NCBI GenBank assembly: GCA_964016885.1
Contig: OZ024742.1
Location: 84,940,001-85,004,000 of the forward strand
Origin: Eledone cirrhosa
Taxonomy: Eukaryota
Reading direction: 5' to 3'
DNA length: 64,000 nt
This document shows, in pieces, positions 3,930 to 63,769 of the stretch (position 1 is the stretch's first letter; each line of letters opens with the position of its first letter). The notes below the pieces were generated by a model. The model worked only from the letters and a program-made list of their open reading frames with translations, had not been told where the DNA came from and did no database searches. The position numbers were made by a program, and so were the translations under genes.

Positions 3930-6900
3930 TTACAAAGAAAAAGAAAACATGGCTGAGCCACGCGCCCCAGCGATATGTCGGCTGTCGTGCGACAACGACG
4001 TAGCAGATGAGAGGAGCGCTACAGCGGACACATTGATAACACAAACACCACCACAAACAAGGCAAACAAAGACACCAATGATACCAATAAGGACACTGAT
4101 TTTGAAAAAAAATGACAGTAACAGCGACAACGAAAATACAGATAACAAAAAAAAAAAAATACCAAATACAACAATATCAACACCACTAACATGAAAACAA
4201 ATAGCGACAACACCAACAGCAACAATACCAACTGCACCGAGAACAACGGTGGCAACAAAGACAGCAATGATAACAGTGACAGTGCTAACAACAACACCAA
4301 CAAGAACAACGACAACAAAACCCCCAACGAAAACAAGAAGAACACTTTCGCTGCGGCAGCAGCAAAAAGAGGCCATGCATTAACATGGACCTCTCAAACA
4401 AAGATGAAAAGTTAGCCCAGGCATGGAAGCTCATCAAGCAAGAACAAACTTGGGCCAACTTAACTGTCTCGGGAGAAGCTATTGAGGCAGTGGAGCGCAA
4501 AACGGTGCATTATAGATGCATCTCAGCACAAACTAAAAGGGCAGCTTTAATCCCACAAGAAGCTGTCGAAGTCGCGCTGAGGTGTATCAGAGAAGACACC
4601 CAGTACATAGAGAGGGGCAGACAGTACGGCACCATTTCGGTGTTGTTCAAGTCAGAAGCCCTCACTATGAAACACGCTAACTCCTTGCAAAACCAGCAAG
4701 CTCATAATGTACCACTCCCACATGGGAAAAAGAACGGCCCGTCTCCGCATTCCCAGAATCCCACCAGTACTTGACATGTGGTGGCTTCTGGGATGTGTGA
4801 TTGTGGAGGGGAAGGATACAGTCCCTATAGAAGTGACCAGTACGGCCAGAGAGGACTGGTCTGGGGTTGACCTGGAGATCCTTCTCCAGATCAGGCCTGA
4901 TAATCTGAAGACAATCCCGGAGCACATCCGCCTTCAGAATGGGACGGTCATTCACATTATGACCGACGGCAAAAGGCCGCAGTGTTTTGTTTGTGGGGAA
5001 AAATCCCATTTGCGAGCCTTCTGCCCTAAACTGCTGAAAGAGGCAAGGGGTCGAAAGGCTCCACTGCTGCTGACGCCGCGGCGAGGACCACAATCAACGC
5101 CAGCACCGGCAAAACCACCAACAACAACACCAATAGAAAGACCACCACCAACATTGACCACCCAGGGGGAAACGAGGAAAGCTGTCAGATTCCCCCTCCC
5201 CGCAAAATACACACACCAATAAAACCATAATAATACATACAGACACACTTACAGACACAGACCTCTCATCAACCAGTAGTGAAAATGAGGGAAATCCAAA
5301 ATCCCCCAAAATACAAAAAAGGAAACACAAAAAGAAAAAAAAATTAACAAAGCACAAAAGCACCCACAATAAAAAAAAGTAGACACCACCCACGCAAACA
5401 TCTCTCGAATAACATCAACACCACCATCACCATCACCAGAATCCCCCAAACGCAAACAACTGAAACAGACGCAAGAACAAATATACACAGAAACATCTGA
5501 AACCACAGACACCACACTCACAACAAACACATACAACCGAAACAACACCACCAAAACCATCACCACCACAGCCACACAAACAAATAAAATCACACCAACA
5601 AAACATACAAAACTTCGTGCTCGTCATGAGGGCCAACAAGGAACTGATCGCCCTCGTAGCACGAAGTGAAAACATACAAAAAGAGGGGGACATTTTTTAA
5701 TCGTGGACATTTCGCGTGCCGGAAGATTTGGTTCTGGTGCGAATGTCGCTCGACATATTCAAAGAAATACGAGACAGCTTTCCTCGGGACGTGGGAACCC
5801 CGAACGTAAAACCCACTTCAAGACTGTTAAAGGGGTTCCCCAAAGAAATCCCACTAACTATGGAGGTCGAACAACTCGACCTTCAAAAGAGCCCGGAAGG
5901 TAAGTAAACTTCCTCTCTCTCTGTTTAACCTGCCAACATGGCCGTATTAAGAATAGGATGTTTAAATGTTCGAGGCCTGGGATCGTCCTGGAAGCAGGGT
6001 CACCTGCTCAACGACCTCAGGTCTATAGAAATGGATGTAATTGCAGTCAGCGAGACCAGGATTTCCGACACGCGCGCACTAGCCCGCATTTTCGACGACT
6101 ATCACATCTTTGCATCTGTTAGCCGGCCGGGAATGGGAGGCGGGGTGGCAGTGCTGTTTAAGTAAGGCCTGGATCTCGAGGTAAGGTCGATCTCCCGAGA
6201 CCCGGACGGGAAGTTGGTGGTCCTGGACGTGAACAATAACGAAGGTGGTGCCTTTAGACTGGTGGCCGTCTATGCTCCTACAGGCGCAGGACGGCCGGAC
6301 TTCTTTAGATGCCTGGAAGCCTTTCTGGGTACGTCTCGCCCTTTATTGTTAGCGGGGGACTGGAACTGCATCTTAGACGCACGCTGGGACTGTGTGGGAG
6401 TATCCGATAGGAGCCGGGGGTGCAAAAGCCTCAGGAACCTGATCAGCCAGTTCCAACTGTCTGACAGGTACCGACTAGATTTATATAATGCGCCAGTGTG
6501 GACCTGGGTTAAACGCATAGGGTCATCTAGATCGTATATAGACAGGATATTCATTAGGAACGTAGACGCTGGACGGACCGGTAAAGTTGCTAGGGGTTTG
6601 GTTCGGGCCAGACCTCCAGGTGGATAAGAATTGGGACGAGGTGACGGCAGGGTCGTCAGTCTCACCCAGAAATGGGCTGGGATGAACCTATCATTGAAAG
6701 GTCGGGCGGAGGTGGCGAACGCGTACATCGCGTCCGTCATCTACTACCGTCTGACTGTCGTCCCTTGCCCCCGTTCGCGCCTCGCCATCTTGGAGCGGCT
6801 CCTCTTCGAATTCTTGTGGAGGGGTCAGGTTCCGCTGGTGAGGCGGTCCATCTGCTGCCAACACCCTCTACGTGGAGGGCTGGGCATGCCGTGGCTAATG

Positions 6901-8037
6901 ATGCGCAGGCACGCGCTGAGGCTGCGGCATCTCCAGATATTCTGCCTAAACGGTGAACGGGTGTGGTCGCCGTTTGTCAGACGGACCTTTCCGCAGCTCG
7001 TTTCTTTGACTGAGTTGCAGTCCTGGCTCAAGGAGAGACCGAAACTGGCTGACTGGCATCTGGAATGTTGCCAGGCACACACTGCCCTCTACCAGGCGGG
7101 CAAGGCGGTCAGTGGAACTTCCACTCTCGAGTTCTATAGAGGATTAGTGGTGGGCAAGTGCGACGACGCACTCGGAGAGGCTCTGGGAGTCAACGAAGTC
7201 GAACTAACCAGTCTGTACCGGAGGACTTTCGAGCCGGACACGATGGATAATTTCCAAAAATCACTCGCTTGGCAGTGCTACCGGGGGGCACTACCGGTTC
7301 GAGATAAACTCTACAGGCACGGAAGTGCTGTCAGACGGACCTGCCCGAGATGCGCGCAGAGCGACGAAACCGTTCTGCACGCACTCGTCCAGTGTCCGTG
7401 CATTACTGACTTGTGGAATTATGTTGAACAGCTGTTGTCGCGTGTAGAACGGATCCGGCTATCGGCCGAGTCCAGAGTGAAGATCGACCCGCCGCCTTCT
7501 TTTGGCCAGGAAGGGCAGGCAATGTTCCTCTGTCTGGTAGCAGTAGCGAAAGAGGTTGTATGGTGGACGGGTTTGAAAGGACTGAAGACAGACACTTTTC
7601 TCTTCGGCCAATCCCTCATCAACTTTTTCAAGTTTCACTTGGAAAGGAAGGTGAGGGTGGAGAGAGAAGTGCTGCATCCCAGTACATTTGCTGAAAGGTG
7701 GGTGAATGTGGCGAGAATGGCCCGTGTGAGTGGGCCTACTCTGGTCATGCGGCTGTAGGTAGGTAAATTTGAAGAGGAGAGGGTGCCCTTCCAGGGTTCT
7801 CTCGAAGCGTCGGATGGTCAGAACTGGTAGGGTATCTGAGCGAACCAGAGGTGGTCACCCTCCCCCCCCCCCTATTGGGGAATGTTTTCTTGTTATAATT
7901 TTCTTGTTACTTTATTGTTACTTTGTTATTGTTACTTTGTTTATTCATATTGTTTACTCGATTTTTCTGTAAAACCCCACTGTCCCAGTCTTTTGTATTG
8001 TCCCCTATATGTCGGCCCTTGTGGCCAATAAATGAAA

Positions 8038-11922: not shown

Positions 11923-12033
<111 letters not shown>

Positions 12034-12249
12034 GGCTTCTACAGGACTAGAACTGTTTCAGTTTCCTGATGATTTCCTTCGAATGAAACAGTTTGAGTCC
12101 TGTAGAATGCATTTCTATATTAGATATTTATACTCTGCTATGTATTAAGTGCCTTACTTACTCTGGTTACCTATATATCTGGTTATATATATATATCATT
12201 TGGATACGTCGGCATATGTGATGTAATAATAATAATAATATCGATAATG

Positions 12250-17928: not shown

Positions 17929-17931
<3 letters not shown>

Positions 17932-18300
17932 GTATATATAATGTATTTTGCAATACACTTTATGCTTAATTAAAAGCATTTTGAAAACCGTATGCTATTG
18001 TTTTAGAGTAGTGACAAACTCACTTACTTTAATCTCAGCAAACAAGGGGAGATAAGCCGACAAGGCCTTGTTTCGCATTTATTGATGCTTATCAAGGCTA
18101 ACTACTCCCTCCTGTCTACTGAGATCACTGATGTTATATTCTTATAGAATTCTAGTAAATAATCAGGAACTGATTATACAGAGCGGTTGCCGGTCAGGCA
18201 GAAATTAAAAATTAGAATTGGAGCTCTGAAATAGCAATATATATATATGAATGTATATATAATGTATTTTGCAATACACTTTATGCTTAATTAAAAGCAT
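17929..18300 (-). mobile_element. ~320-nt retrozyme-like unit (family A) with wrap-around; hammerhead motif 18055..18099
   Basis: Start sequence repeats at 18250 (period 321). AGCC TTGATAA GCAT-CAATAA-ATGC GAAA CAAGGCCTTG TC GGCT; palindromic stem III. Confidence 0.75.
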
Positions 18301-23030: not shown

Positions 23031-23033
<3 letters not shown>

Positions 23034-23452
23034 TGTATGTATAGTATATTTGGTAATATAGCGTATGTATAATTAAAAACATTTTGAAAACCTTGTGCTA
23101 TCATTTTAAAGTAGTGACTATGTCACTTACTTCTTTTTTCAGCAAAGGAAGGGAGAGAAGGTGACACATTCTGTTTCACACTATTGGTGTTCTTCTGAGC
23201 AACGTACTCGCGGACTTCTGCCGCAAATTATGTAGGCTGGATTCTTATAGAATTACAGTTATAAGTAGGAACTGATTATACAGCGATTGCCGGTCCAGCA
23301 AAAATTAAAAATTAGAATTGTTCCTCTGAAATAGCGATATATACACGAATGTATGTATAATATGTATGTTTTTAATTAAACATACAGTATATTACCAAAT
23401 ATACTATACATACATTCATGTCTACATCGCTATTTCAGAGCACCAATCCTAA
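23031..23452 (-). mobile_element. Family A copy (period 316) with inverted partial arm and decayed hammerhead
   Basis: Shares TTGCCGGTC..GCA.AAATTA..CTCTGAAATAGCGAT with the 18xxx and 39xxx copies; CAGAAGA ACAC-CAATA-GTGT GAAA CAGAATGTG TC. Confidence 0.65.
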
Positions 23453-23661
23453 TATATATATATATATAAGAAAAAGGGATATTTAATTGTTGGTGATGTT
23501 AAATAAATTGAAACTAGATTTATAAAACCATATTTATTCTATTATATATATTTTAAGGGTACCAAAACTTTGGTACGCTCTCATCAGATAAAATACAAAG
23601 TTTATTTTATAAATATTGACATAAGCAGGAAGATCTTAACGTTTCAATATATATATATATT

Positions 23662-25395: not shown

Positions 25396-25431
<36 letters not shown>

Positions 25432-25435
<4 letters not shown>

Positions 25436-25922
25436 GTTTCTACTTTAGGCACAGGGCCAGCAAATTACCCAGTGCATTACTGGTACTTTATTTTATCGAC
25501 CCCGTATGGATGAAAGGCAAAGTCAACCTCGGCGGGATTTGAACTATATATTATATATATATATATAATTATTTCTACTTTAGGCACAAGGCCAGCAATT
25601 ACCCAGTGCATTACTGGTACTTTATTTTATCAACCCCGTAAGGATGAAAGGCAAAGTCAACCTCGGCGGGATTTGAACTATATATTATATAAATATATAA
25701 TTGTTTCTACTTTAGGCACAAGGCCAGCAATTACCCATTGCATTACTGGTACTTTATTTTATCGACCCCGTAAGGATGAAAGGCAAAGTCAACCTCGGCG
25801 GGATTTGAACTATATATTATATATATATATAATTGTTTGTACTTTAGGCACAAGGCCAGCAATTACCCAGTGCATTACTGGTACTTTATTTTGTCGACCC
25901 CTGTAAGGATGAAAGGCAAAGT
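25432..25922 (-). repeat. Four tandem partial copies (~130-bp period) of a tRNA-derived SINE
   Basis: Unit ..GGCACAAGGCCAGCAATTACCCAGTGCATTACTGGTAC..GGATGAAAGGCAAAGTCAACCTCGGCGGGATTTGAACT, separated by TA-rich spacers; longer copies at 38270-38440 and 48655-48838. Confidence 0.85.
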
Positions 25923-38448: not shown

Positions 38449-39175
<727 letters not shown>

Positions 39176-39198
39176 ATATATATATATATATATATATA

Positions 39199-39850
39199 TG
39201 AAGACAAACATAGAATATTCGAAAATATTCTGTATGTTTATAATAAACATTTTGAAGACCTAATCGCTATAGAATAGAATACGTCACGTATTACAATTTG
39301 AGATTCTCGATAAAAGCAAGGGAAGTAACCTACGCGTTTCATTCTTATTTGAAATCATCAGGATTACATATCCAATGCTTTTATCGAGAATGACACAGCT
39401 AGAGACTTATAGAATACTTAGCTGTGTACAGGAACTGGTTTGAAAGAGCGGTTGCCGGTCCGGCAGAAATTAGAATTTGGATTTAATGCTCTGAAATAGC
39501 GATATATATATGTGAAGACAAACATAGAGCATTAAATCCAAATTCTAATTTCTGCCGGACCGGCAACCGCTCTTTCAAACCAGTTCCTGTACACAGCTAA
39601 GTATTCTATAAGTCTCTAGCTGTGTCATTCTCGATAAAAGCATTGGATATGTAATCCTGATGATTTCAAATAAGAATGAAACGCGTAGGTTACTTCCCTT
39701 GCTTTTATCGAGAATCTCAAATTGTAATACGTGACGTATTCTATTCTATAGCGATTAGGTCTTCAAAATGTTTATTATAAACATACAGAATATTTTCGAA
39801 TATTCTATGTTTGTCTTCACATATATATCGCTATTTCAGAGCATTAAATC

Positions 39851-39855
<5 letters not shown>
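39199..39855. mobile_element. Young family A foldback: two head-to-head ~313-nt units, each wrapping past its own junction
   Basis: Near-perfect inverted arms. TGAAGACAAACATAGA at 39199 and 39513; AGAGCATTAAATCC at 39526 and 39838; TA tracts on both sides. Confidence 0.9.
39651..39693 (+). ncRNA. Minimal type I hammerhead ribozyme (mirror copy 39325..39367 on -)
   Basis: GTAATC CTGATGA T-TTC-AAATAA-GAA-T GAAA CGCG TA GGTTAC; palindromic ACGCGT; stem I extended by the 15-bp helix TTCTCGATAAAAGCA/TGCTTTTATCGAGAA. Confidence 0.85.
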
Positions 39856-39912
<57 letters not shown>

Positions 39913-40048: not shown

Positions 40049-40052
<4 letters not shown>

Positions 40053-43000
40053 TAATGAAATGACAGGAGGCTGGATTTGTGTAAATCCTTGAAAGGTTTA
40101 TTATACTATGATCATTTCAATGACCGGGTTCCGTATGAATCCGGTGATATCATCAGGTATTCGAAATATAATACTTGAATGTAATAGGTAAAATCCATGG
40201 GGCTGAAAATCGAGACCCGAGGGCGACCGCTATTCTGTTCCTTCAACCTCAGCCGGTCGCCCTGGAGTGACGTGGCTAAATTTTATAGTATGCTACTACC
40301 GGTCAGATGAACGAAAACAGAAAGAGATGGGAGCATAGGTTAACGTCGATCCCATGACACAAGGTAAAAGAAAGAAAGAAAGGAAGGAGAAGAAGGGGGA
40401 AGAAAGAATAAGAGAAGTCAGGGTTAATGTCAGCTAAAAGAGGAAGGTAACTACTACTGGTCAGATATAGGCAAGCAAGAGGGGGAAGGAAGATAAGTCT
40501 GCGGGAGGAGGAGAGGAGAGAAGGAAGGGAAGAGAGAAGTAGAAAAGTAAGGGTTGGTGGCTACAAGAAGGAAGATAGAAAGGAAGAGGAAGAAAGGTCG
40601 ATATTAATGTCAGACCACAGTCAGGCCAGGAGTGGCGCGAGAAAATTTTCACAGGGACCCGCATCTTAGCGGAGATGAATATATTGGGAGTCAGTGTTTT
40701 ACAGTGTTTAGACTTCTAGGATGAAGTTAAAAAAATTTAATAATCAATATTCAATATTAAAGAGGTTAGAAAATTTAAAGTTCAACAGTTTAACAATTAA
40801 TTATATAATAGTTCCGATTTGTTCTGTAATTTAAAGGTACTATTTGGCGGTTAAAACAACGGCCGCGCCCCGGGCCACATGGCGAATTAAGCCACGCCGA
40901 GTATTTTCATTTACTGAAAGAAGGGGAAATTTATTTTTCCAAGCACTCCAGGTGAGCTCGTTCGCCAGGGAGCTGGTCGCGCCGCCATTAAAACCCACCC
41001 AACAGTCCGACAGAAAGTTGGAACTTTAAAATTTAGCTTAGAGAAGTAAAAGAGTAATGGTTGATAGCTACAAGAAGGAAGATAGAAAGAGAGAGGAAGG
41101 AAGGTCGATATTAATGTCACACCACAGTCGGGCCAGGAGTGGCGCGACAAAATTTTCACAGGGACTCGCATCTTAGCAGAGGTGAATATATTGGGGGTCA
41201 GTGTGTTACAATGTTTAGACTTATAGGATGAAGTTAAAAAATTAATAAATTAATAATCAATATTCCATATTAAAGAGGTTAGAAAACTTAAAGCTCAACA
41301 GTTTCAGGTTGATATATATAATAGTTCCGATTTGTTCTGTAATTTAAAGGTACTATTTGGCGGTTAAAACACCGGCCGCGCCCCGGGCCCCATGGCTAAT
41401 TAAGCCACGCCGAGTATTTTCATTTACTGAAAGAAGGGGAATTTATTTTTCAAAGCACTCCAGGTGAGCCCGTTCGCCAGGGAGCTGGTCGCGCCGCCGC
41501 TAAAACCCACCCAACGGTCCGACAGAAAGTTGGAACTTTAGAATTTTGCTTAACTCTATCGGATGAAGTTGAAAGAATTCAGAATAACATTATGAAACTA
41601 AGGAGTAAGAGGATTGAGAATTGAACAAACAGAAAATTGAAGATTAGACATTCAAATAACTTCTATGAGGTTTTGGGTTGCGGGGTTTAATTAAATAGTC
41701 TTTTATGAAGAAACGTTAATTGTATTATGTAGATCTGTAATTTATCCTAGTGGGATGTAGAGTACGGGATATAGTCGTGTAATGTTTAATTTTTGTTCTC
41801 AGGAGGAGACATTCTAGTGTCGTGTGCTAATGGGTACAGGTCCCAATGTGAGGAGTAGAAATACATGGATACATAGAAGTGGAATACGTGGAAGAGCTAA
41901 TGGGTACAGGTCCCAATGTGAGGGGTAGAAATACATGGATACATAGAAGTGGAATACGTGGAAGAGCACATTGGTACAGCAGAGGTATAAATATATAAAC
42001 ATATCAATATATAGGTATAAACATGTAAATAAACCAACAAGAGTGGTGTTGGAGTAAGATGGAGAAATCAGGACATTAATACAGCAAACAAAGATGTGAA
42101 GATATAGATAAACAAACAATAGTCGTTGTCTAGTAAATGTAGAGTTCAAGAGACAGGAGAAATACAATATAGTTCAGGTTGCGGTATTTATGTTCCCAGG
42201 GCGAAATATTCCAGTGACGTGTGCTGAGGGTACACGCGAATAAAAGTCCGAATAAGGGAAGTAGAAAGTACATGGATGTATAGAGGTAGAATACGTGGAG
42301 GAGCATTAATACAGCAAATAAAGATGTAAAGATATAAATAAACAAACAAGAGTCGTTGTCTATTAAATGGAGAGTTCAAGACACAGGAGAAATACAATAT
42401 AGTTCAAGTTGCAGTCAGATAATGCATATAGATGTGGAAACAGTGCGTGTTCGAGTCTGGGAGTTCAGTGTGAGTTATACATGCCCAGAAGTATAGGGTA
42501 GCCATATAGTTAATTCAGTGCAGTACAATACATGTTATGGTCCAGTTCGTGGAGTTTCATCGAAGTTCGGATATTCTGTGAGGGGAGTAGCAAAGGGCCA
42601 GGCGAAAGCACCGGGTAGCCAAAGTTCGAATTGTGGTTAGATATATTCAGTCCCATGCCGCTGTTGATTATTACATTTTGAAGTGCTCAACATTTCAGGA
42701 GCGTTATTTATTCAGGTTTGAGGTTCACCACTGTATAGAGCTGGTCTATTCCGTATGGTCAATCGTAATGCAATAATATAGAGAGTACTCAACGTAAAGC
42801 AGTTCAACCGTCTTTGTTTTTGTAGTTGGTGGTGCTATTACGGAGTTAAATATTATAATGAAATGACAGGAGGCTGGATTTGTGTAAATCCTTGAAAGGT
42901 TTATTATACTATGATCATTTCAATGACCGGGTTCCGTATGGATCCGGTGATATCATCAGGTATTCGAAATATAATACGTGAATGTAATAGGTAAAATCCA

Positions 43001-43562
43001 TGGGGCTGAAAATCGAGACCCGAGGGCGACCGCTATTCTGTTCCTTCAACCTCAGCCGGTCGCCCTGGAGTGACGTGGCTAAATTTTATAGTATGCTACT
43101 ACCGGTCAGATGAACAAAAACAGAAAGAGATGGGAGCATAGGTTAACGTCGATCCCATGACACAAGGTAAAAGAAAGAAAGAAAGGAAGGAGAAGAAGGG
43201 GGAAGAAAGAAGAAGAGAAGTCAGGGTTAATGTCAGCTAAAAGAGGAAGGTAACTACTACTGGTCAGATATAGGCATGGATTTTACCTATTACATTCACG
43301 TATTATATTTCGAATACCTGATGATATCACCGGATTCATACGGAACCCGGTGATTGAAATGATCATAGTATAATAAACCTTTCAAGGATTTACACAAATC
43401 CAGCCTCCTGTCATTTCATTATAATATTTAACTCCGTAATAGCACCACCAACTACAAAAACAAAGACGGTTGAATTGCTTTACGTTGAGTACTCTCTATA
43501 TTATTGCATTACGATTGACCATACGGAATAGACCAGCTCTATACAGTGGTGAACCTCAAACC

Positions 43563-45567: not shown

Positions 45568-46110
45568 ATATACGATATTAACAAATGGAAACTATATTTA
45601 TAAAACCATATCTATTTTATTATACATATTTCAAGGATAACATGTTAAATTATGGTATGCTTTCATCAGACAAAATACAATATATACCAGTTTTAATAAT
45701 AAATATTGACATACCCTTTCAAAATGCGACCGTTACTTTTGGAAGACATCAGGGATAGTGGATTTGTTTATCTTAGTAATTCGTTGTGTTACGGAGAAGG
45801 AAAATGACGGAGAGAGAGAAAAATCCGAGAGAGAGAAAAGTGGAGAAAGAAAGGTTTTTTCTCTCTTTCCGTCTTTTTTCTTCTCCGTAACAAAACGACT
45901 TACTAAGATAAACAAATCCACTATCCCTGATGTCTTCCAAAAGTAACGGTCGCATTTTGAAAGGGTATGTCAATATTTATTTATAAAACTGGTACATATT
46001 GTATTTTGTCTGATGAAAGCATACCATAATTTAACATGTTATCCTTGAAATAGGTATAATAAAACAGATATGGTTTTATAAATAGAGTTTCCATTTGTTA
46101 ATATCGTATA
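45568..46110. mobile_element. Family G foldback with hammerheads 45613..45677 (-) and 46002..46066 (+)
   Basis: ~255-bp inverted arms; TATTTTGT CTGATGA AAG..CTT GAAA TATGTA TA ATAAAATA. Confidence 0.85.
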
Positions 46111-46193
46111 TTTACTCCAAATACTTGTCGAATGCTTTATATCAGTTATAAAAATATTTGCTTGCTGTATCCCAACAATCTAAATTGAACTTT

Positions 46194-46237
<44 letters not shown>

Positions 46238-53974: not shown

Positions 53975-53982
<8 letters not shown>

Positions 53983-54648
53983 ATACTTTGGGAGGGTCAT
54001 GTTGCCAATGAGAAACACACGCACCAGTTGCTTTCACTTCAATTTAATTTATTATATATTTATAAATTTACAAATTTATAAATTTCTGGTTGGTTGGTTG
54101 GTTCCACAACCAGATAGTTGTTTATATATATATAGTCATAGTTCTTTCGTCACACACTCTGTGACCTCTTCAGTGACTGGGGATTTCTTTCTTCGTTTCT
54201 GTGCCTTTCCTTTCTTCTATCCTACGCCATTTTGTTTGTGTGTGGGTTGAACGCTACTAAGAACGCTACTAAGCTATAAATTAAACGACGAGCTCCGTCC
54301 TCTCCAAAAATAATAAAAACACAGACACTCATACTCACGCACACACTCACATAGACACTAACTCAAACGCACGCAAATGCACTCAAAACAAAATGGCGTA
54401 GGATAGAAGAAAGGAAAGGCACAGAAACGAAGAAAGAAATCCCCAGTCACTGAAGAGGTCACAGAGTGTGTGACGAAAGAACTATGACTATATATATATA
54501 AACAACTATCTGGTTGTGGAACCAACCAACCAACCAGAAATTTATAAATTTGTAAATTTATAAATATATAATAAATTAAATTGAAGTGAAAGCAACTGGT
54601 GCGTGTGTTTCTTATTGGCAACATGACCCTCCCAAAGTATAACAATAT
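53975..54648. mobile_element. Family H foldback with hammerheads 54134..54178 (-) and 54445..54489 (+)
   Basis: 53975-54237 is inverted at 54385-54647; AGTCA CTGAAGA G-GTCACA-GAGTG-TGTGAC GAAA GAAC TA TGACT. Confidence 0.8.
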
Positions 54649-54702
54649 CGGTTTCAACACACGATTTCAGATAAAGAATCTTGCTAAACAAATTCAGAAA
54701 CG

Positions 54703-56100: not shown

Positions 56101-56947
56101 GTTCGTCGTCTTCATATAAATTCTGGATGTCGTTATATTCTGTGCAAAAGTTAAAGGCCGAAACAATTGCTTGAGTCAGTATTCTTCTCTGAAGATATTC
56201 TACAGCCCAGCTGTAATTTTGTTACCTCTATTGTGCACAATTGTTTCAATTTCATACATTATAATGTTCATATTCTGCATTCAAACGTTTTATGTTATCA
56301 ACATAATCAACACAACCATATGAAAATATAATATTTAGTTTTGGGATTCAGATTTTGCTCATTTCACATAAAACTATCAATTTAAACAAAACATACAGCA
56401 GTTTTATACCTGTTCTAACCCCCTTAGCAACTCCCACTGGAAAAAGAAGTATGAGTAAGCCTGAAGCAAATTTCTTGATTTCCGGGATATATATCTATCA
56501 CATGCTATATTTTTATCGCTAATTGATAAGTTTTCACATTGGAACATTATCAATTGTAGTTTTAGATAATTGTAGTTTTAAATCTATATTCTCTATATTC
56601 ACAGTTTTCATGTGTAAAAAATGATATCATACACTGTTAGAAAACTATGATCTGTGAGATGATTTATTTCATATATATTTAAGTTTTCGTACTGTAATTT
56701 TACTTCTCTCAACATATATTTCCTTAGGTTATCTTCCTTGTACTATTTAGGTTATTTCTCCATTTCAATTTACCAATGTATTAAAATATTTAACTTATAT
56801 TTATAAACACACACATACCCCCCCCCCCCCCCATATATATATATATATATATATATATCTGTGTAGACGTTCTATTTAAATTGTTGGGAGCAAATATTTT
56901 TATAACTGATATAAAGCACTAAACAAATTATTTGAGTAACACTACTA

Positions 56948-57240
56948 TATATTAACAAATGGAAACTATATTTATAAAACCATATTTATTTCATTATACA
57001 TATTTCAAGGACACCAAGTTAAATTATGGTGTGGTTTCATCAGATAAAATATAATGTAGAGCAGTTTTATAGATAAATATTGACATTAAGGGTATGTCAA
57101 TATTTATATATAAAACTGCTCTATATTATATTTTATCTGATGAAAGCACACCATAATTTAACTTGGTGTCCTTGAAATATGTATAATGAAATAAATATTG
57201 TTTTATAAATATAGTTTCCATTTGTTAATATATCGTATAT
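56948..57240. mobile_element. Family G foldback with hammerheads 56987..57051 (-) and 57129..57193 (+)
   Basis: Inverted arms centred at ~57088; stem II ACACCA/TGGTGT versus ATACCA/TGTTAT in the 45xxx copy. Confidence 0.85.
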
Positions 57241-63493: not shown

Positions 63494-63769
63494 GTATACA
63501 GACTAGAGTGTGACAAATGCAACAACTTCTACGTAGGTAGCACCACCAGACCACTCCACATAAGAATAAAAGAACACCTCAATACTAACGCTTCCTCATT
63601 TAAGAAACACCTAGTTAAATGCAAAAACACCGACAAAACCATAACAGTTAGGATAGAAACTAAGGAAAGAAACCTCGGCAATCTTAGAATTAAGGAAGCA
63701 CTAATTATAGATAAAACGCAACCACCAATCAATAATAGACTAGAACTCAACACCCAATTTATAACCTGA
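63494..63769 (+). pseudogene. 5'-truncated Penelope-like element: C-terminal GIY-YIG endonuclease
   Basis: VYRLECDKCNNFYVGSTTRPLHIRIKEH..SSFKKHL..RIKEALII..QPPINN has the GIY-YIG signature with CxxC; no stops; begins at a TA run; CA-rich 3' region follows. Confidence 0.85.

Follow-up and report, generated by a model that had tools for sequence, protein, structure and literature searches.

A probable hammerhead retrozyme family of Eledone cirrhosa with PLE-type insertion ends and a putative circular RNA template

We analyzed a stretch of 64,000 nt from the genome of Eledone cirrhosa (assembly GCA_964016885.1, contig OZ024742.1, positions 84,940,001 to 85,004,000, forward strand; hereafter the window) and followed the element at 39199–39855 through the 3.0-Gb assembly. 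In our assessment, this element is probably a recent retrozyme insertion whose mobilisation was due to a Neptune-type protein of a Penelope-like element (PLE) that acted in trans and repeatedly copied one monomer RNA, itself probably a circle. For the more specific model that two PLE reverse transcriptases (RTs), primed by opposite target strands 27 nt apart, roll round one circular RNA up to 11 times, we consider the chances to be evenly balanced.

The element lies inside (TA)n; its unit has 312 nt, bears a hammerhead and is present as two arms that are inverted relative to each other and truncated at their 5' ends (Table 1). Both arms (39190–39492 and 39526–39828) comprise 303 nt with a complementarity of 100%, forming a near-perfect palindrome, and their 3' ends point outward, with the hammerhead on the + strand in the right arm and on the - strand in the left. 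In the 64-kb window, 16-mers repeat at 39199/39513 (period 314) and 39526/39838 (period 312); recurring 16-mers and 12-mers reproduced all four periods given in a preliminary description of this DNA (314, 312, 321 and 316). Unit positions are counted from the C at 39829 as position 1, which places the cleavage nucleotide (39687) at position 171. The repeated unit, estimated before at ~315 nt, is real, but the monomer measures 312 nt, and the period of 314 is due to 2 extra nt in the linker, as found in 2/316 internal linkers of the family arrays. The two wraps of the element differ in kind: the left arm starts with a 25-nt 5' stub (unit positions 288–312) of an upstream tandem unit, followed by a full unit to the TA linker, and the right arm covers unit positions 10–312 and then repeats positions 1–27 as a 27-nt 3' tail.

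Table 1 Features of the element at 39199–39855 and of its two diverged relatives in the window.
Feature	Position	Strand	Remarks
Copy of diverged subfamily B, single-armed	17929..18300	-	period 321 here versus family monomer 319
Copy of diverged subfamily C	23031..23453	- (23031–23359), + (23360–23453)	- arm with linker end; + arm short, inverted, with 26-nt tail
Left (TA)n target tract	39166..39199		overlaps linker end of left arm
Left arm, complete 312-nt unit	39190..39501	-	3' linker end meets (TA)n at 39190–39199; internal CA changed to TA
Left-arm type I hammerhead	39325..39367	-	predicted cleavage after 39331; placed by arm symmetry; HH9 39311–39376, E 0.036
TA linker (+2 nt) and 5'-truncated stub, unit positions 288–312	39502..39528	-	source of period 314
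Inversion point	39526..39528		3-nt overlap common to both arms
Right arm, unit positions 10–312, 5'-truncated	39526..39828	+	TA linker at about 39820–39828
Short GC-rich hairpin motif	39552..39572	+	from fold; conserved in 3/3 window subfamilies
Right-arm type I hammerhead	39651..39693	+	core at 39657; predicted cleavage after A39687; on long stem 39628–39715
27-nt PLE-type tail, unit positions 1–27	39829..39855	+	source of period 312
Right (AT)n target tract	39854..39907		from sequence

In line with the earlier statement that the unit carries no ORF, no frame of at least 120 aa overlaps any of the three window copies (39199, 17929, 23031). The unit is low in GC and appears as a structured RNA (circular fold z of -5.0 against 100 shuffles), and its GC-rich hairpin is likely part of an RT-recognition region. 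An antisense frame across this conserved hairpin was rejected, as the common 49A>T allele (45/96 arrays) introduces a stop, and the microRNA matches that Rfam gave at the inversion point are due to the palindrome only. Tandem repetition of a non-coding 312-nt monomer, within the 150–450 bp of retrozymes, accounts for the whole unit, with no LTR or own coding region and no apparent PBS or PPT. Each unit carries one type I hammerhead, though one that scores below the Rfam gathering level. The element contains no ORF with the RT and GIY-YIG endonuclease of an autonomous PLE; it does have an inverted 5'-truncated arm and a single-ended tail, as PLE insertions do. Judged from these sequence features, it is likely a non-LTR retrozyme, that is, a non-autonomous PLE parasite and a young copy of a known class, and not a PLE terminal repeat.

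Across the genome, the unit gave 426 candidate places, of which 40 were scored, a degenerate 23-nt hairpin pattern matched 19,056 times (control 0) and the exact tail+TA junction 123 times (control 0). The set of 312-type arrays that we analyzed has 122 members, 44 chosen by score and 78 by the tail pattern, which had contributed 79 new loci among the 100 matches listed of 123. We left out a locus that was present twice, the second halves of two split loci and, in the later loci, pieces of at least 40 nt with less than 90% identity; eight 310-type arrays were handled apart. The arrays hold up to 17 full units.

The window copies at 17929 and 23031 had been taken as independent copies that wrap in the same way. 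Their periods hold (17929/18250 = 321; 23031/23347 = 316, from 12-mers), but they represent diverged subfamilies, B and C, which are 66% and 63% identical to the 312 unit. Likewise, the presence of one hammerhead per unit applies to both arms at 39199–39855, whereas the core at 17929 is the U3-A8 variant UUGAUAA and the core at 23031 is degenerate (CAGAAGA). The U3-A8 core was found in 52/54 matches of the subfamily B loci (2101 candidate places in the genome) and has been described before as a covariation of hammerheads in PLEs (PMC4209133). The same anatomy of arm, linker and tail is present in subfamilies B and C and in the 310 type. Besides that, the window contains further hammerhead-like motifs beside (TA)n at 12030–12190, 40049–40560, 42860–43440, 45570–46200 and 56870–57240, several of them in inverted pairs, which probably belong to other retrozyme or PLE-end families. 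Further window features are a 376-aa frame with a zf-RVT domain at 6628–7758, likely a LINE fragment, and a 132-bp SINE-like unit in 3.8 tandem copies at 25409–25922, which we take to resemble an octopus SINE.

Next, the array ends were placed on the monomer. While 19 of the 122 arrays were scored as single-armed and 2 as complex, 101 are simple two-armed arrays, and 94 of these combine one linker end with one tail end. In the other 7/101, a tail is combined with an end that is irregular or cut off; linker+linker and tail+tail combinations did not occur in this set (0/101 each). Two tail-picked loci (L223 and L292) carry a tail stub of 9–10 nt at the opposite end. Tails measure 27 nt in 24/34 cases and stop at AT or TA. 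The 3' ends thus fall on two fixed sites that lie 27 nt from each other and are each used once per insertion. The 202 inner ends, in contrast, have scattered positions (KS p 0.03 versus a uniform distribution), and 5/202 lie no more than 5 nt from the cleavage site (expected about 7). At nearly all loci shown, the outer ends lie within (TA)n, an AT-rich microsatellite target, and since the array flanks themselves are (TA)n, a target-site duplication cannot be delimited.

This arrangement resembles the typical PLE insertion, in which partial tandem copies are found next to a truncated copy in inverted orientation and one end bears a tail of 30–40 bp (Craig et al., 10.1101/2021.04.23.441226). 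A PLE protein cuts and extends both target strands; in vitro, it mainly uses RNA that is not cleaved and starts at two internal sites, which bound the tail (Frangieh et al., PMC11167929). The run past the unit end, which the preliminary description had read as the signature of a circle, is therefore an ordinary PLE footprint of one-ended tail and inverted truncated copy, and the wrap alone is no proof of a circular template. Arm lengths within an array are correlated (rho 0.39), but this was given no weight because score-picked loci favour long arrays. The suggested pairing between the TA linker and the (TA)n target, in contrast, appears to take place in the family: a CA is kept in 315/316 internal linkers and lost to a target-like TA in 66/95 terminal ones. 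Most simply, this would result if the (TA)n strand, once nicked, annealed to the UA run of the RNA in a shifted register.

The idea that a circular RNA was copied, while not supported by the wrap, gains support from the haplotype purity of whole arrays, from which we infer it. Full units of one array share the same 10-site haplotype in 543/554 pairs, and also across opposite arms (217/222 pairs), compared to 6608/37396 pairs between arrays. Not one of 68 arrays mixes alternative alleles at the 10 segregating sites in its full units; 4/68 contain a deviant full unit, with new alleles and not the alternative one, and with partial units counted, L230 and L272 each have one unit of the alternative allele. 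Recombinant haplotypes occur and are fixed array-wide, a private variant of L032 is fixed in 19/19 units, and one-array variants are fixed over both arms. Furthermore, A>G or T>C changes make up 20/38 of the array-fixed variants versus 46/283 of the single-unit changes (p 2e-6), and 8/17 of the one-array variants (p 0.004). As the spectrum differs, the array-fixed variants are unlike genomic mutations that spread afterwards, but single-unit changes may partly be assembly errors, by which the contrast would be inflated, and the fixed variants could be biased if RNA structure is under selection. A-to-I editing of the sense RNA was rejected as their source, since there is no strand bias (11 A>G and 9 T>C among the array-fixed variants; p 0.42 in comparison with single-unit changes). 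Finally, 378 passes over the cleavage site show 0 indels. Based on the purity of whole arrays and these indel-free passes, it is probable that one monomer RNA was copied repeatedly without a break, most simply as a circle.

Several observations weigh against this explanation. Unit position 49 (window 39565 and 39453), which was excluded from the 10-site set, is the only segregating site often mixed inside arrays (6/76 arrays; A/T, in L256 C/T), which may mark a modified or misread RNA base, or dimer templates. In addition, 23 distinct variants are common to part of an array's units, some of them in runs of neighbouring units, with runs of adjacent shared variants in L037, L052 and L059, though the polarity of such variants is uncertain; in some cases, then, multimers served as templates, the template was switched or units were homogenised later. 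The cleavage nucleotide is fixed as G in 5/5 units over both arms of L046 (G000:C4:67978074-67979812). Such a G17 impairs minimal hammerheads but does not always abolish cleavage (PMC3884650), and as a single event it could reflect chance. The one PLE tested in vitro manages without hammerhead cleavage, uses unprocessed RNA and starts at sites without homology to the cut DNA (PMC11167929), and none of the 8 PLE families examined in this genome carries a terminal repeat with clear homology to the unit.

These points would fit a second explanation, in which the same element and PLE machinery used an uncleaved linear multimeric transcript, with purity arising from the source arrays and local homogenisation, so that a circle would not be required. 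In vitro, the PLE Poseidon PAc accepts RNA that has not been processed and does not depend on cleavage by the hammerhead (PMC11167929); the mixed site 49, the adjacent runs and the G17 of L046 would follow readily, and the seamless passes over the cleavage site fit equally well. We nevertheless regard it as unlikely: none of the arrays mixes at the 10 sites despite 283 single-unit changes, recombinant haplotypes are fixed array-wide, the one-array variants fixed in both arms have a different spectrum, and changes in the hammerhead helices and the 3-8 pair are compensatory. Copying of a linear self-cleaved monomer, with the RT jumping from its 5' end to its 3' end in every round, would explain the monomer bottleneck without ligation. 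End-to-end jumps of R2-type RTs usually leave scars. Such scars are thus expected, yet the 378 passes contain no indel and 5' ends do not pile up at the cleavage site (5/202), which renders this possibility improbable. L215 and L218 share a fixed insertion that was considered as a candidate ligation scar but dismissed, as it sits 2 nt beyond the cleavage site and not at it. Two public runs of unrecorded kind, which contain little of the genome's commoner repeats, each yielded the unit in one contig, with lengths of 342 and 340 nt that correspond to the monomer plus 30. We did not accept them as evidence for circles, because tandem DNA gives the same assembly-graph cycle and contig depth is unreliable.

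We further looked into the hammerhead of the right arm, which has a 6-bp helix I, a CUGAUGA core, a helix II with a basal U-U and a helix III of 1 bp within the palindrome ACGCGU. The Rfam search returned no match at gathering level, the closest being a weak HH9 match (20.1 bits against a gathering threshold of 52, E 0.036). Across 12 family variants, however, helices I and II covary with double changes in 8/9 pairs, a score reached by 0/500 shuffles, although kinship of the sequences inflates this test; the true helix register is 89% paired, compared to 33–55% in slid controls. A 1-bp palindromic helix III predicts cutting as dimers and a monomer that resists recutting (PMC4209133), and by this analogy the unit is predicted to cleave as a dimer.

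To identify a possible partner, we screened the genome for coding PLEs and obtained 10,596 RT+GIY-YIG candidates, of which 150 were scored and 50 loci read. Long uninterrupted RT+GIY-YIG frames are present in L101 (938 aa) and L103 (1096 aa), and the PLEs read mostly have a CxxxxCxxC motif ahead of the endonuclease, which, following the description by Craig et al., suggests that the PLEs of this genome are mostly Neptune-type. Several PLE families end in a TA linker, tail and (TA)n, as the retrozyme arrays do, which favours mobilisation by a PLE protein. An autonomous PLE family that is abundant in the genome (2897 candidate places) is represented in the window itself, at 53975–54700, by an inverted end that is truncated on its 5' side and has canonical hammerheads at 54450 and 54173, a linker end on the left and a ~58-nt tail on the right, and, at 63494–63766, the GIY-YIG end of a PLE that is 97% identical to the L110 family. 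In L062, L042, L212 and L072, the retrozyme array is inserted into the TA-rich end of an autonomous PLE copy or directly at it, an instance of nested (TA)n targeting.

Given these similarities, the unit might be the pseudo-LTR of a yet-unfound autonomous PLE, its copies being truncated 3' ends of the kind seen elsewhere in this genome. Two loci join PLE coding elements directly: at L067:4231–5700, a PLE 3' UTR continues on the same strand into unit position 203, and at L043:5740–7348, a PLE ORF continues on the same strand into a B-type 3' end. The joins, which involve different PLE families, could be template switches or deletions; if template switches, they would name the mobilising RT. Against this origin, a search of the 129 array loci by tblastn with 7 PLE proteins gave matches in 12, of which only L067 abuts a 312-type array, and further copies of its PLE family that we inspected carry an unrelated terminal repeat of their own. 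Moreover, the 5' extension of the arms in the 122 arrays is a restart of the unit, over up to 3408 nt, and none of them runs on into an own coding sequence. The possibility, raised before, that the copies are the terminal repeat of a longer coding element did not hold in this respect, and the assignment to non-LTR retrozymes is strengthened by the extension of arrays solely through unit restart and by the tblastn result. Among 8 PLE families, no terminal repeat was clearly homologous to the 312 unit (best z 2.5 against shuffles), and neither the GIY-YIG family scan, with its 150 scored candidates and 50 loci read, nor local alignment nor the L067 chimera revealed a parent PLE. A match of subfamily B to one PLE end (z 4.7) was discarded as an AT-rich, out-of-register alignment. 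Altogether, we hold the pseudo-LTR explanation to be very improbable.

Finally, variants common to some adjacent units, and the proneness of palindromes to misassembly, could point to an ordinary satellite shaped by unequal crossing-over and fold-back, or to an assembly artefact. We give this almost no credence: the outer ends are fixed, with one of each kind per locus, the (TA)n sites are dispersed over many contigs, the ribozyme covaries, and the unit is found in independent public runs.

Taken together, our preferred model of retrozyme copying by a Neptune-type PLE protein could proceed as follows. Tandem arrays would be transcribed, their hammerheads, given the weak palindromic helix III, would cut as dimers, and the cut monomer would be ligated. 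The PLE endonuclease would nick both (TA)n strands, and each nicked 3' end would prime reverse transcription on the same RNA, one primer pairing with the UA linker and the other, 27 nt on, through a pairing of 2–3 nt. The two cDNAs might then extend for 0.1–11 rounds and be joined at their truncated ends.

The metazoan non-LTR retrozyme class was defined by Cervera and de la Peña in 2020, who demonstrated circRNAs of this class in coral, mussel and axolotl and proposed PLE-driven copying of the circle (PMC7229834); both the class and the proposed circle-then-PLE cycle are thus already known, though the published support that we consulted comes from co-occurrence and homology and not from insertions. 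Like the retrozymes described there (newt/axolotl satellite, mussel, coral), the 312-nt family has a tandem unit of 150–450 bp with a type I hammerhead and no ORF; its helix III is of the 1-bp palindromic type of HHR_Amex1 and its helix II has a basal U-U as in HHR_Amex2. In contrast to them, it is a separate sequence family with inverted arms, tails and fixed end sites, for which the available portion of PMC7229834 holds no description. Tandem and inverted 5'-truncated arms and a one-ended tail are shared with canonical EN+ Neptune-clade PLEs (Craig et al. 2021), as are an AT-rich or (TA)n target and a hammerhead near the 3' end. However, the unit lacks the RT and GIY-YIG ORF of Neptune-clade PLEs, its arrays are pure unit multimers, and its tail of 27 nt is slightly below the 30–40 of PLEs (Craig et al. 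2021). PAc uses two RT start sites and extends both strands (PMC11167929), which the array ends suggest for our family as well, but priming in the 312 unit appears to use target pairing and that of PAc in vitro does not. The non-autonomous MRC1 differs from the 312 unit in belonging to the Chlamys clade, which is without hammerheads, and in having a 3' end that resembles that of its autonomous partner (Craig et al. 2021). Based on co-occurrence and pLTR homology in vertebrates, animal retrozymes were argued to derive from PLEs (Li, Clavereau, Pollet, 10.64898/2026.07.22.740005). We reach the same conclusion on the mobilising machinery; that study leaves the mechanism open, whereas the link for the 312 unit is its insertion anatomy, and a homologous pLTR was not found in 8 families.

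How the tandem, inverted and tailed insertions of PLEs form has been called an open task (10.1101/2021.04.23.441226; 10.64898/2026.07.22.740005). We found no description of the end rule or of array purity for retrozymes in the literature searched, though subscription papers or supplements may hold one. The 312-unit family therefore adds insertion-level, countable evidence on the retrozyme cycle and on the form of PLE insertions, and this young and abundant family offers, with its 312-nt unit, a very small substrate for in vitro tests. If the model of two RTs on one circle is true, there would be genomic evidence that a natural ribozyme circle undergoes target-primed reverse transcription in rolling-circle mode, and a single mechanism would account for the tandem copies, the inverted arms and the tails of PLEs.
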